A stretch of DNA of 64,000 nt from positions 120,697 to 184,696 of the forward strand of contig JBAZKC010000002.1 of NCBI GenBank assembly GCA_041651035.1. Direction: 5' to 3'. Position 1 is the first letter of the stretch; every line of letters starts with the position of its first letter. The stretch is from Candidatus Omnitrophota bacterium. GTDB taxonomy: Bacteria > Omnitrophota > Gorgyraeia > Gygaellales > Profunditerraquicolaceae. Made by a program: the position numbers and the translations under genes. The notes below the pieces were generated by a model. The model made no database searches. It saw only the letters and a program-made list of their open reading frames with translations, and was not told the origin of the DNA. Below are positions 41,246 to 44,713 of this stretch, piece by piece.

Positions 41246-41602
41246 ATGAGAGACTTACTATTCAAAAATCTAACTTCGGTAGACAGAAAGCGTAAGGTAG
41301 TGTCCACCTCCGAAACTATGGAGAATCAGGGCATTAGAAGCGTAATACGCCGTCATTTTGTTTGTATGATGAAAGAGGTTATGGCCGAGGATATGGAAAA
41401 AAAGCCTTCGCCGTATCTTTATGTTTTAAAGATCCGCAATGCCAAAGAGCAAAAAGAGAAGTTTTTCTGCAGGATAAAAGGAAGCGTGTACGCGATAAAT
41501 AAGGGCAGGATATTCCTTATTGTTTTCGCGCATTCTTTAAAAGTTGATCTTGCGGCTACGACTCATGATCTGGCAGGATATAAGGAGGATAATAGTACCT
41601 AA
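41246..41602 (+). CDS. Hypothetical protein of 118 aa
   Basis: ORF with upstream SD gaggaat; no family recognised. Confidence 0.4.
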   Translation: MRDLLFKNLTSVDRKRKVVSTSETMENQGIRSVIRRHFVCMMKEVMAEDMEKKPSPYLYVLKIRNAKEQKEKFFCRIKGSVYAINKGRIFLIVFAHSLKVDLAATTHDLAGYKEDNST

Positions 41603-41662
41603 CTCTTTGGGGCATAAAGAGTTTTATCTCTGATTATTGTTAGGAATACGCGGAAAATCTAG

Positions 41663-41698
41663 GGGACGGTTCTAGAATAGAACCGTCCCCTTGTTTTT
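41663..41698 (+). terminator. Perfect 13-bp-arm palindrome ggggacggttcta-gaa-tagaaccgtcccc followed by a T-run. It is a terminator and a member of the GGGGAC/GTCCCC family.
   Basis: Direct reading. Confidence 0.75.
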
Positions 41699-41762
41699 AC
41701 CTGTCTTAACTTAGTTTCTTAGCAGCTTTCGCGGCGGCAAGATGCTTTATAATCCCTTCGTT

Positions 41763-41869
41763 ATCCCGCCTCGTAAGATATGCCAAAATTCTCTTCGTTA
41801 CCTTCGGTAACTTTGATAATTTTGGCATACTCGGCGGGATATCTTTGCGCATTATAAATGCGCAAAGAT
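41763..41869. repeat. Composite structured element: the 22-mer cccgcctcgtaagatatgccaaaatt, an inner hairpin gttacc-ttcg-ggtaac, an inverted partial copy aattttggcatactcggcggg, and the perfect palindrome atctttgcgcatt-ata-aatgcgcaaagat
   Basis: Direct reading. The 22-mer is identical to 2384-2405 apart from one substitution. Confidence 0.75.
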
Positions 41870-41879
41870 TAAATTTTTA

Positions 41880-41908
41880 TTGACACATTCGGAAAAAATA
41901 TATAAAAT
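41880..41908 (+). promoter_or_regulatory. Consensus sigma70 promoter TTGACA-N17-TAAAAT ending 6 nt before the ATG at 41915, implying a leaderless or near-leaderless transcript
   Basis: Direct reading: ttgacacattcggaaaaaatatataaaat aacgta ATG. Confidence 0.55.
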
Positions 41909-41914
41909 AACGTA

Positions 41915-44659
41915 ATGCAAAAACAGCCCACCAGGGTATTATCAATCTGTATAATTCTATTTTTATGCCTGACTACCAGTTCGGCTTTTGCCGCGTCTCA
42001 GGCAGCGCAGTATCTTTCTGAATTCGGCGCCACATTTTATCGCATGGGTAAGTTTGATGATGCCTTAGGCGAGTTTGAAAAAGTGCTCATGATTGAGCCT
42101 GATAACCAAGAGGCAAAAGCCTATATCAGGCTTATTTTTCAGAAGGAAGCGGCAGTACGCGCTCAAGCTCAAGTTAATCCCCTGGCAAAATCTTCAATAG
42201 GCGGGGCACCGGATGTAGATAATGTTAAACCAAGCCGGGAAGACGCGATCTCGAATACTTTAAACCAATTAGACAGTGAAAGTTCTTATGGGAAAAAACC
42301 AGGCACATCTTTAAATAAAGGCATAGTAATAAGCGGAGAAGCAATGCTGAGCCTGGGCGTTACGCCTCATGATGTGATCTGGAAACGGGCTAATTTTGAC
42401 TTAAACGAGGAATATCAAAGCTGGCGCAGGAATTCCACCGCGGTTTTTAACCGTGGTTTTAATACTTATGACCCGAGGGTTTATGATTCGCTGGTTATAA
42501 ACGCGGATACTCAAAATAAAGAAGGCTTCAATTTCCATACCAATATTACGATAGATCCCTGGAGTTTTGTAGGTAAGAGCGACAAGATCACGGTTACCGG
42601 TTCCAACGGCGATACCGCCCAGTTGCAGCTGTATTACTGGTCCAACACCGGTTATGTGGTAAATGACACGGCATATACTTCCTCTAAGGGGGATAGTTTC
42701 GGGATCCCCGAAGTAAAAGTAAAAAATGGAATATCCGATGGTTTTACTTCCACTTCTTACCGCTTAGGCGCCACTTACGATGTCCCCGCCATGAAGATCA
42801 AGCGGGAGTTCCAGCCGTTGCGCGAGTTATGGCTGAATTATAATAATGACCAGCTGAAATTCAGGGCGTTTCCCATGTCTTATCAGGACCAGGCTTATTC
42901 TTCAGATGATCCCATGGGGATAACTAATCACGGTATATGGTGGAACGAAAGTAAGTGGCTGCGCCAGTATACGCCAGGCAATTATAACTCCGGGGATACG
43001 ACACCCAGTTATACTAAGGGCTATTGGAATGACGCTCTTTCTTCCTTAAGTAAAGATTCTACCGGCAAATATTTAACCGCTTTAAGAGGTTTCTCTTTCA
43101 CCATCCAGCCGCAGGAACAGGTTTCTTTTGACACTACTATTGCCACGCCTAAAAACCTCTGGCAGGATTATGGACAGGTAGATAACATTATTTCCGCCAG
43201 CCGCCTTAAATATAAGCCGAAAGATAACTTTATGCTGGGCAGTACCTTTACCAGCCGCACGGGATTTATAACCGAAAAAAAACAGGAACTAGACAGCCGG
43301 AACTTTGTTGCCGGAGTGGATCTAGGATATGAGATAGCTGATGGGATAAAAGCCCAGGCAGAAGCATTGGGTTCTAAGTCATACTATGATGAGAGCAATT
43401 CTAACTACAGGACACAAGACCAGGGTAACGCCTACTATTTTTCTTTAATTACCCGCTACCCCAGAGAAAGCATCATGGACTTAAAATACGGCTATGATGA
43501 AATAGGCATGAAGAAAGGGGAAACTTTCCTGACCAAAAGCAAGTTTTACGCCGCGCGCATGGATAACGGTTTTGATTCAGCGCTTTCTGATTTCCATAAT
43601 ACGCGCCAGGATGTGTTCTGGTCAAGGCATATACATTTTCGCATGCCTTTGAAATATTACAGTTCCGGGCTATATGGCAACAGGACAAATTGGGATGAGT
43701 TAAACGCTACTAAGATAGGCGACGGCATCGATATCGGCCGTAATGTTTTAGGCTACCGTTTTGAAACATTCTTAGAAAATAAATTCTATAACCTTTTTGA
43801 CGTGCGTAACGTGCACAATGTAAAAGGAAAATTCGTGGAAAACGTAGTGCGGGACGAGGCCACTATTAAAGTAACTGATAAATTGACTGCCAAGGTACTG
43901 GGAATTTACCAGAAATTACCCCGGACTACGGGCGGAGTAGACCCTTTTATATACGATGGGGTAACAGGCGATTTTTTCCTTAACTCGGCAGTCCCTGACG
44001 GAGAGGATCCTTCTATTAAAACAGGTTCCTTTGGCTTAAATTATGATTTCTTTGATTGGTTGAGTATAAATGGTATATATGAACGCACGAATGATTATAG
44101 CCTGGCGTATGGCGGTTTCCCTCAGGATGTATATATAAACAATACTACCTTGTACGGGACCTATTACCAGAATGACAAACTCTACCGCGCTATTCAGTCT
44201 TTTCTTTACAACCAGCAGTATTATCCGCAGGCGCCTTATCCTTACTACAACGTGGCTAAGGCCGGGTTAAGGTTGGCCCCGTTTAAGAATATGGAGATGT
44301 ATATTGACTATGCTTATAACGAATTCAAGGCTGCCTCCATGAATTCCGACGGCATGAACCACGTAGGCTTTGAAGTAGCCTATATGCCGACCAGCAAATT
44401 CGGCATGGCTTTAAAATATATTTTCTCGCGTTCTCAGGATATGGATCATTTACTGGCAGGTGACGACAATATGATAGGGCACCATAACTTTTTTGGAGAA
44501 TTCAGGTATCTTCCTTCTAAAGACGATGAGCTTATCCTGCAGTACGGAGAAGGCAATAGCAGCGCTATCGGCAATATGGTTTTGGACCCTTACGGTGGCA
44601 GCATGCTTACCTTAGACACGCAGCATATTTTCCGCGCTTATTATCGTAGAAAATTTTAA
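41915..44659 (+). CDS. Large secreted protein of 914 aa: signal peptide, N-terminal TPR-like segment, aromatic/Asn/Gly-rich body and C-terminal Phe. Putative outer-membrane beta-barrel.
   Basis: Signal peptide MQKQPTRVLSICIILFLCLTTSSAFAAS; TPR-like YRMGKFDDALGEFEKVLMIEPDN; terminal ...YYRRKF. Confidence 0.55.
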   Translation: MQKQPTRVLSICIILFLCLTTSSAFAASQAAQYLSEFGATFYRMGKFDDALGEFEKVLMIEPDNQEAKAYIRLIFQKEAAVRAQAQVNPLAKSSIGGAPDVDNVKPSREDAISNTLNQLDSESSYGKKPGTSLNKGIVISGEAMLSLGVTPHDVIWKRANFDLNEEYQSWRRNSTAVFNRGFNTYDPRVYDSLVINADTQNKEGFNFHTNITIDPWSFVGKSDKITVTGSNGDTAQLQLYYWSNTGYVVNDTAYTSSKGDSFGIPEVKVKNGISDGFTSTSYRLGATYDVPAMKIKREFQPLRELWLNYNNDQLKFRAFPMSYQDQAYSSDDPMGITNHGIWWNESKWLRQYTPGNYNSGDTTPSYTKGYWNDALSSLSKDSTGKYLTALRGFSFTIQPQEQVSFDTTIATPKNLWQDYGQVDNIISASRLKYKPKDNFMLGSTFTSRTGFITEKKQELDSRNFVAGVDLGYEIADGIKAQAEALGSKSYYDESNSNYRTQDQGNAYYFSLITRYPRESIMDLKYGYDEIGMKKGETFLTKSKFYAARMDNGFDSALSDFHNTRQDVFWSRHIHFRMPLKYYSSGLYGNRTNWDELNATKIGDGIDIGRNVLGYRFETFLENKFYNLFDVRNVHNVKGKFVENVVRDEATIKVTDKLTAKVLGIYQKLPRTTGGVDPFIYDGVTGDFFLNSAVPDGEDPSIKTGSFGLNYDFFDWLSINGIYERTNDYSLAYGGFPQDVYINNTTLYGTYYQNDKLYRAIQSFLYNQQYYPQAPYPYYNVAKAGLRLAPFKNMEMYIDYAYNEFKAASMNSDGMNHVGFEVAYMPTSKFGMALKYIFSRSQDMDHLLAGDDNMIGHHNFFGEFRYLPSKDDELILQYGEGNSSAIGNMVLDPYGGSMLTLDTQHIFRAYYRRKF

Positions 44660-44705
44660 TCTCGCGCATTGCAAATGCGCGAGATTTTGCCATATCTTAG
44701 GAGTC
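44658..44705. terminator. Bidirectional terminator palindrome aatctcgcgcatt-gca-aatgcgcgagatt between convergent genes, fused to an inverted copy of the CTCNTAAGATATGSCAAAA element
   Basis: Direct reading. The palindrome belongs to the same family as 41841-41869. Confidence 0.7.
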
Positions 44706-44713
44706 GGCGAAAC

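Follow-up and report, generated by a model that had tools for sequence, protein, structure and literature searches.

Repetitive extragenic palindromic sequences (REPs) consist of a palindromic unit of 20–40 bp that bears an unpaired tag, GTAG or CGTC, on one side (PMC3733652), and their copy number usually exceeds 100 per genome (PMC2817692). In REPINs, two inverted units form one hairpin, and single units are decayed remnants (PMC3337134, PMC3116915). Here we describe a hairpin, H1, and its variable companion, H2, in a 64,000-nt stretch of a Candidatus Omnitrophota genome (assembly GCA_041651035.1, contig JBAZKC010000002.1, positions 120,697–184,696; hereafter the window). Both lie in a 312-nt spacer (41603–41914) between a 118-aa gene (41246–41602) and a 914-aa gene (41915–44659). 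With a probability of about 0.65, we read positions 41762–41869 as a complete copy of an interspersed repeat of Candidatus Omnitrophota that comprises two hairpins and has a strand polarity; on this reading, the copy was inserted at this site and is locally a passenger.

H1 occupies 41762–41841 on the + strand, the strand of a 22-mer noticed in a first-pass annotation of the window. Its lower stem pairs 41762–41770 with 41833–41841 and its upper stem 41779–41790 with 41818–41829; between them, a conserved 8-nt TCGTAAGA (41771–41778) faces CTC (41830–41832). The first-pass annotation had described a hairpin built from the repeated 22-mer: the inverted arms are indeed present, but the right arm carries CTC in place of the 8-nt TCGTAAGA, an asymmetry conserved across the family. 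The apical region (41791–41817) contains a lineage-specific 18-nt extension hairpin at 41797–41811, the same as in locus L059. Folded as a long imperfect hairpin with arms 41765–41790 and 41818–41840 around the mini-hairpin GTTACC-TTC-GGTAAC (41797–41811), the structure reaches −37.0 kcal/mol on the + strand and −39.7 kcal/mol on the − strand (z = −8.2 and −8.7), values equalled by 0 of 200 shuffles. The family consensus, TACCCCGAC-TCGTAAGA-TATGGCAAAATT-loop CTCTTCGAT-AATTTTGCCATA-CTC-GTCGGGGT, is 61 nt long. Variants of 79–127 nt carry the extra sequence always at the hairpin tip, and loop insertions of 18–65 nt themselves fold as hairpins.

A scan of one genome per species with the 19-mer TCSTAAGATATGSYAAAAT returned 46 loci, against a chance yield roughly estimated at about 35. 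At 14 of the 46, the motif forms the left arm of the same hairpin H1; 12 of these are labelled Omnitrophota and 2 are metagenome-assembled genomes (MAGs) of Planctomycetales. Searching metagenomes with the two-arm pattern added 27 H1 loci, and Candidatus Omnitrophota, sampled as MAGs or in metagenomes, now account for at least 29 copies. When 13 copies were used to build a covariance model, cmsearch scored 28 copies at 57–93 bits and a divergent one at 53 bits, and located a single full copy in the window (41762–41840; 82.6 bits, E = 5e-18). In the alignment of 29 copies, 96.4% of the cells are paired, and 10 of the 21 base pairs have changed on both sides (48 cells); none of 500 shuffles scored as high, and shifted registers were only 25–51% paired. 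The two central positions of the upper stem occur as GGC/GCC, GCC/GGC, GCT/AGC, GGT/ACC, GAA/TTC, GAC/GTC and GGG/CCC, and covariation in the lower stem turns CCCCGAC/GTCGGGG into CCCGCC/GGCGGG, CCCGGC/GCCGGG or CCCAAC/GTTGGG. The unpaired TCGTAAGA and CTC are constant in 27 and 28 of the 29 copies, respectively, most loop bases are near-constant, and the invariant unpaired bases do not differ between genomes that span 40–58% G+C.

These substitutions covary as base pairs, not as codons, which leaves next to nothing of the idea that the conserved sequence encodes a short peptide, for instance MAKLSKRILPYLTSRG on the opposite strand. ATG-GCA-AAA does occur in both arms, the loop insertions of the window copy (18 nt) and L021 (39 nt) are in frame, and some long open reading frames (ORFs) read through the element. 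However, the +1 loop variant of L019 and L023 leads to an immediate stop, the 65-nt insertion of L035 breaks the frame, and the sequence 3′ of the arm is unrelated between copies; the frame-breaking variants already contradict a coding role. A bidirectional extended −10 promoter (TGnNAAAAT in both arms) was also rejected, as it leaves the complementary variable positions and the tip insertions of up to 65 nt unexplained. By-eye comparison of the bulge and loop with a sigma-54 promoter, K-turn, 11-nt GNRA receptor, boxA and sarcin-ricin loop found none in register. Rfam searches yielded one tRNA as the sole match in the window, chance-level matches far below gathering scores in region 41500–42000 at E values up to 10, and, at 11 other H1 loci, tRNAs and one flavin mononucleotide (FMN) riboswitch, none overlapping H1. 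A full-text literature search retrieved no paper on such repeats in Omnitrophota. The H1/H2 repeat is previously undescribed and matches no Rfam family. The riboswitch (L024, 4605–4872; 68 bits against a gathering score of 66.2) lies 5′ of riboflavin genes whose ribH–nusB spacer has an H1, and the two are seemingly unrelated.

H1 possesses an intrinsic strand polarity. Core mismatches on the 22-mer strand comprise 13 A·C or C·A cells versus 1 T·G, which become G·U/G·T wobbles on the complement. There, the conserved GAG pairs with CUU (one G·U), leaving a 4-nt ACGA bulge and a single bulged U, whereas a large internal loop remains on the 22-mer strand. With RNA parameters, the complement is the more stable form in 26 of 29 copies (mean difference −4.4 kcal/mol); with DNA parameters it is so in 29 of 29 (mean difference −2.4 kcal/mol). 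Its tips are C(GAA)G in 19 copies and otherwise C(GGA)G, C(GCA)G, C(GUAA)G or G(GAA)C, so that the middle base varies within a constant G...A frame. As the copies are related, none of these counts stands for independent events. Taken together, the four observations point to the complement of the 22-mer, the − strand in the window, as the relevant strand. H1 copies split 12 to 17 relative to local GC skew, without bias, and a replication-linked orientation was rejected on this ground; relative to confirmed neighbour genes the split is about even.

Strong covariation together with invariant bulge and loop bases is also what a functional structured RNA would display, and H1 might be a small RNA made from the complement strand or a protein-binding hairpin of operon transcripts (in processing, stability or termination) that has spread by recruitment. 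Consistent with such an RNA, G·U-type wobbles and GNRA/GNA tips are confined to one strand, the tip carries variable hairpin extensions as in many RNAs, H1 is kept at the trpC/trpF spacer of two diverged species, copies within operons and between tRNA genes are necessarily transcribed, and the copies with A·C mismatches lie mostly where local GC skew suggests that the opposite strand is coding. Yet with one intrinsic polarity and about half of the copies facing each way relative to flanking genes, operon transcripts would carry two different RNAs; a role as an operon-mRNA hairpin thus fails to explain a polarity that is kept regardless of neighbouring gene direction. A free-standing RNA gene, one of the initial proposals, is made unlikely by the lack of any matching Rfam family, by the lack of a conserved promoter or U-tailed terminator with H1, and by copies wedged between genes, some of them 5–17 nt away; in the window, no − strand promoter match adjoins the element. 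The dominant C(GAA)G triloop offers a further hint, since C(GNA)G triloops, including C(GAA)G, are exceptionally stable DNA mini-hairpins and are better known as such than as an RNA motif. We therefore judge a structured RNA unlikely, and because polarity is unexplained by an operon-mRNA role and a separate transcript is itself unlikely, a single-stranded DNA intermediate is favoured, which a protein would recognise as happens in REP/REPIN-RAYT, IS200/IS605 or attC systems.

We then compared the spacer with four orthologous loci (L075, L076, L077/78 and L079), in which the encoded protein is 66–69% identical and gene order is kept. Neither H1 nor H2 is present in any of these spacers, and the two hairpins would accordingly be an insertion in the window's lineage or, alternatively, a loss in all others. 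Since the terminator and the near-leaderless promoter flanking the hairpins are kept at all four loci without H1 or H2, both are conserved ordinary parts of the locus. The spacer thus combines three unrelated things, namely a terminator, a promoter and a hairpin repeat. This result bears directly on the proposal that the hairpins regulate the 914-aa gene as a cassette particular to this locus, be it an attenuator, an operator or a leader. The hairpins do stand directly 5′ of its promoter, with the end of H2 10 nt from the −35 hexamer. However, the orthologues retain the promoter and near-leaderless start in their absence, the hairpins lie 5′ of the predicted transcription start and hence outside the gene's mRNA, and elsewhere H1 adjoins unrelated genes. 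A cassette for the outer-membrane protein gene, as initially suggested, is contradicted by these loci and very improbable; annotation of the window should not assign the hairpins a regulatory role for the downstream gene.

Two further sites in the window, 2379–2404 and 44683–44709, are decayed left-arm-only remnants of the H1 family. In both, the left arm is joined directly to H2-type sequence and H1 is no longer formed. The first (2379–2404, + strand; CCCACCTCGTAAGATATGCTAAAATT) scores 18.5 bits with cmsearch and has no excess folding (z = 0.02). It contains the 22-mer with one substitution at 2383–2404; the 38-kb-distant recurrence noticed initially therefore stands (0 of 100 shuffles gave two matches), with its position corrected from 2384–2405. 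In the second (44658–44709, − strand), the left arm (44709–44683, CGCCGACTCCTAAGATATGGCAAAATC) is fused to an H2-type palindrome (44686–44658), which alone folds at −23.4 kcal/mol. Here the inverted relative noticed initially (44683–44709, − strand) and the GCGCATT palindrome (44658–44686; AATCTCGCGCATT-GCA-AATGCGCGAGATT) were both recovered. This remnant sits in the spacer of convergent genes of 914 and 1095 aa, and its palindrome overlaps the TAA of the 914-aa gene. An extra TAAGATATG at 2439–2454 was dismissed as a chance match, given its overlap with the next gene's start codon and the occurrence of AAGATATG at other gene starts in the window. As a separate observation, the first remnant supplies the stop codon TAA of fmt (…CCC ACC TCG TAA). 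The upstream ORF also appears to end in the TAA of the motif at L065 and probably at L052, L060 and L062, the last three with inconsistent ORF calls; from these sequences, the repeat may supply stop codons to neighbouring genes.

Across the family, the presence of H1 is patchy between genomes. One or two matches occur per contig of 10–200 kb, with a single one in contigs of 48–200 kb, and usually one per 8-kb locus, from which H1 probably numbers tens per genome; one pair, in L071, is 148 nt apart. Outside the window, its neighbours include ribH/nusB, rpmB, trpC/trpF, fabF, tRNA genes and a cytochrome oxidase subunit gene, without a functional theme; the contexts cited were confirmed by translation or Rfam, as ORF-based strand calls are noisy in GC-rich loci. 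Copies within a genome share private variants: L019 equals L023 in the core, including the +1 loop variant, and L020 equals L026. One site speaks for retention more than for turnover: L019 and L029, at TrpC and TrpF identities of 75% and 56%, both have H1 and H2 in the trpC/trpF spacer, facing the same way and with compensatory differences. However, the L019 copy in this spacer is closer to its genome-mate L023 than to L029, suggesting concerted evolution or re-insertion. The initial suggestion of an element resembling transposable elements of the miniature inverted-repeat type (MITEs) is thus borne out in spirit, with copies elsewhere in the window and across Omnitrophota and with strong covariation. 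Two tests had been set for it, namely additional copies genome-wide and conserved structure in homologous intergenic regions; many additional copies were found, and no conservation in homologous intergenic regions.

Individual loci add some detail. At L047 (2069–2333), H1 (2162–2222) lies in the 116-nt spacer of two tRNA genes on the strand opposite the motif, where its better-folding form would be part of the tRNA precursor transcript. In two overlapping loci of one MAG (JACRHP01; L002 6007–6185 and L046 1–214), the H1 tip is broken by an insert of ~185 nt with 13-bp inverted ends (CCTGACTTCGTCA...TGACGAAGTCAGG), flanked by a direct duplication of ~56 nt of the H1 left half. Either an assembly artefact or a small element with the hairpin as its target could account for the arrangement. 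Viral contigs contained no H1 copy; their 14 matches to the 17-base core included none fitting the H1 model, are attributable to chance, and led us to reject a phage origin.

In the window, H2 (41841–41869, + strand; −16.4 kcal/mol, z = −6.6) is perfectly palindromic (13-3-13; ATCTTTGCGCATT-ATA-AATGCGCAAAGAT) and has a T-rich tail like that of a terminator. In the H1 copies read, another inverted repeat follows H1 after 0–6 nt, and its sequence and length vary by lineage, a statement based on reading the sequences of copies rather than on automatic detection. Examples are ATCCGCCG...CGGCGGAT, which encloses up to ~190 nt, and ATAAGTTCGGCC...GGCCTCACTTA. H1 and H2 have been duplicated as one unit within single genomes (L019/L023 and L008/L021). 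GC-richer lineages carry an extra hairpin 5′ of H1, ATGGAGC-CCACGGGC...GCCCGTGG-TACC, which the window lineage lacks. In the form ATGGAGC-CCACGGGC-TAAA-GCCCGTGG-TACC, with compensatory variants of its own, this module precedes H1 in L008, L020, L021, L048, L052 and L058, and similar hairpins recur inside H2 of L008, L020 and L021. The pattern suggests that the ATGGAGC-type hairpin is a second repeat family forming mosaics with H1.

Among described repeats, the element appears closest in behaviour to REPINs. As in REPINs and REPs (PMC3116915, PMC3337134, PMC2817692, PMC3733652), two inverted arms of ~25 nt form one long hairpin, one-arm singlets decay, as illustrated by the two-arm copy and two left-arm remnants of the window, and copies are extragenic, between co-directional or convergent genes and in both orientations. 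H1 likewise shows an intrinsic strand polarity and mosaics with other hairpin modules, as in bacterial interspersed mosaic elements (BIMEs). It departs from the REP definition in several respects. H1 is 61 nt long (79–127 nt with tip insertions), its arms are not themselves palindromes, GTAG is absent, and CGTC is found only in copies with a GAC/GTC lower stem and is gone from the GCC/GGC and GGC/GCC variants. Judged from contigs rather than whole genomes, H1 is probably present in tens of copies per genome at most, not hundreds; its sequence is conserved across species of very different G+C content, and no REP-associated tyrosine transposase (RAYT) was found in a weak search with approximate queries over 382 kb.

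Enterobacterial repetitive intergenic consensus sequences, or intergenic repeat units (ERIC/IRU; PMC2229807), offer a second parallel. Like them, H1 is a low-copy imperfect palindrome, intergenic, likely transcribed and found in either orientation, with a sequence highly conserved between species at differing chromosomal positions and with larger versions arising through insertions at fixed internal sites, in H1 at the tip. H1 copies between ribH/nusB, trpC/trpF and tRNA genes, in both orientations, match this behaviour, with co-transcription predicted. The likeness is one of behaviour only; H1 belongs to another phylum, measures 61 nt versus 127 bp, and in the copies read always comes with a variable second hairpin. 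ERIC, for its part, has an orientation-dependent effect involving RNase E. With MITEs such as Correia/NEMIS, RUP and BOX (PMC2229807, PMC10969869), H1 shares a short non-coding unit with inverted ends, a long stem-loop, and insertion near gene ends where it can supply stop codons, as for fmt in the first remnant. It differs in that no target-site duplication is demonstrable, that no parent insertion sequence with the same ends occurs in the 41 loci, and that it has kept an asymmetric bulge, for which simple terminal inverted repeats would have no use.

Integron attC sites resemble H1 in layout, with lower and upper stems set apart by an asymmetric unpaired spacer, a variable structure at the end and better folding of one strand, and H1 could be a site for site-specific recombination, of the attC or another type, that folds from a single DNA strand. 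The end hairpins of IS200/IS605 share with H1 the better-folding strand, conserved unpaired stem bases and variable tip, and a TTAC tetranucleotide is located at the H1 bulge of the strand that folds better; IS608 has TTAC as its cleavage and target motif. GTCGGGG also loosely resembles GTTRRRY. However, the R″/R′ boxes of attC (RYYYAAC/GTTRRRY) are not found in H1, where the stem bases covary freely, and its sequence is far more conserved than in usual attC sites. Cassette arrays are absent too; apart from the L071 pair, copies are isolated, tens of kb apart among housekeeping genes, and H1 and H2 are not two similar end hairpins. No integrase gene was noticed on reading the flanks, whose ORFs received no protein-family search, and no TnpA emerged from the weak 382-kb search. 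A role as a recombination site is therefore highly doubtful. We therefore file H1/H2 under the general kind of interspersed palindromic hairpin repeats, outside any named family.

Under the interpretation of H1/H2 as an inserted repeat, the copy would have entered, in no lineage but that of the window, the interval separating an ordinary terminator from the conserved, near-leaderless promoter of a gene for a tetratricopeptide repeat (TPR)/outer-membrane-like protein. The element would behave as a REPIN/REP or ERIC type, persisting and occasionally duplicating as a single-stranded hairpin, more likely of DNA than of RNA, whose invariant bulge and loop would be recognised by a putative trans-acting protein. 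Its local effect would be essentially nil; at most, H2 and its T-rich tail might shield the downstream promoter from read-through.

Several observations weigh against this interpretation. Density is low, at about one full copy per 50–200 kb and one full copy plus two remnants in the window, unlike classical REPs. No transposase or RAYT-like gene was found by a weak tblastn test with approximate YafM and IS200 TnpA queries against 382 kb of Omnitrophota DNA (best E = 0.17), and no long element is bounded by H1 arms among 41 loci. The H1 flanks read showed no consistent target-site duplication and no empty/filled pair of close relatives was definable (the next homologue is 69% identical), so that mobility is deduced from patchy presence alone. 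The retention of H1 with compensatory changes at the trpC/trpF spacer looks like purifying selection for a host-level function, and the invariance of unpaired bases across 40–58% G+C likewise resembles such selection more than it does a purely selfish repeat. Even without selection, template-switch correction between the arms of a palindrome can produce compensatory changes, and the A·C excess could stem partly from strand-biased deamination.

More tentatively, H1 may be the recognition hairpin of a phylum-wide, strand-specific Omnitrophota system, either a vertically inherited REPIN-like replicator with a non-RAYT enzyme acting on single-stranded DNA or a conserved RNA hairpin with a dedicated protein. 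In that case the invariant ACGA bulge, the single-U bulge and the C(GNA)G tip would be protein contacts, and selection, beyond mere tolerance, would maintain tens of sites per genome.

It is unusual for a selfish repeat to combine a low copy number with nearly invariant unpaired bases in genomes of 40–58% G+C and with compensatory evolution at a shared site, which makes the H1 family a reasonable test case for the idea of REPIN-like elements as long-lived, host-integrated replicators. A covariance model, a consensus and a polarity are now defined for it in Omnitrophota, an uncultured phylum for whose non-coding repertoire no description was found in Rfam or the literature search. The family also gives a starting point in the search for a protein recognising the hairpin, and it can be used to mark breaks in assemblies. 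One short-read contig, whose sequence equals that of the window (L074, 2364–2555; Logan contig from SRR8542065), stops inside H1 at the position matching 41794, indicating that H1 breaks assemblies.

Folded as a whole, the 312-nt spacer departs strongly from shuffled sequence (z = −7.6 and −8.9 for the + and − strands, respectively), and the four elements listed in the first-pass annotation, from terminator through the two hairpins to promoter, are all present and in that order, far beyond chance. The terminator and promoter calls in particular hold, both being kept at the four orthologous loci. The intrinsic terminator of the 118-aa gene (41661–41701, + strand) lies outside the repeat and has the expected G+C-rich stem-loop followed by a T run 3′ of a gene: AGGGGACGGTTCTA-GAA-TAGAACCGTCCCCT forms a stem-loop at 41661–41691 of 14 bp, 8 of them G-C, and the T-rich tail TGTTTTTACC extends to 41701. 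All four orthologous loci have a terminator in the same place after the small upstream gene, with a different sequence. On the − strand, a short T run (AGATTTTCC) adjoins the hairpin 41661–41691 there too, and the terminator may consequently act in both directions.

A predicted sigma-70-type promoter (41880–41914, + strand), also outside the repeat, has its −35 hexamer at 41880–41885 and its −10 hexamer at 41903–41908. The motif, TTGACA-N17-TAAAAT, matches 11 of 12 consensus positions and ends 6 nt short of the ATG at 41915. L075, L076, L077 and L079 carry TTGACA/TTGACC-N16/17-TATAAT/TAAAAT ending 9–12 nt 5′ of the ATG, so that at the sequence level the spacing falls within 16–18 nt and the position is conserved in the orthologues. 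With the predicted start at or adjoining the A of the ATG, the mRNA of the 914-aa gene would be nearly leaderless. In five genomes, promoter and ATG are separated by 6–12 nt without a Shine-Dalgarno sequence (window 41880–41917; L075 2950–3003; L076 2955–3003; L077 2960–3003; L079 2957–3003), and a leaderless or nearly leaderless mRNA is predicted to be conserved across them.

The 914-aa protein matches a hypothetical protein of a Candidatus Omnitrophota MAG at full identity and has hundreds of homologues in Omnitrophota at 60–69% identity. It contains a signal peptide, one TPR pair and the C-terminus ...AYYRRKF, and searches of Pfam and PDB sequences returned the N-terminal TPR pair as the sole match. 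The protein and its orthologues share an aromatic-rich end, ...YYRR(K/R)F (44640–44659), which resembles the C-terminal signal of outer-membrane barrels and makes an outer-membrane barrel a plausible product. Gene calls place lepA, lepB and plsY in the neighbourhood, with a CDP-alcohol phosphatidyltransferase gene between lepB and plsY. At L076 (5818–5926), the spacer between the convergent TPR gene and a 1094-aa gene holds another module, CACATAACTTAGC...GCTAAGTTATAAGTG ... CCTCACTTAA, like the H2 type of L019, L023 and L029 and without H1; as the second remnant of the window occupies the same spacer, the convergent spacer of the TPR gene seems to collect hairpin modules.

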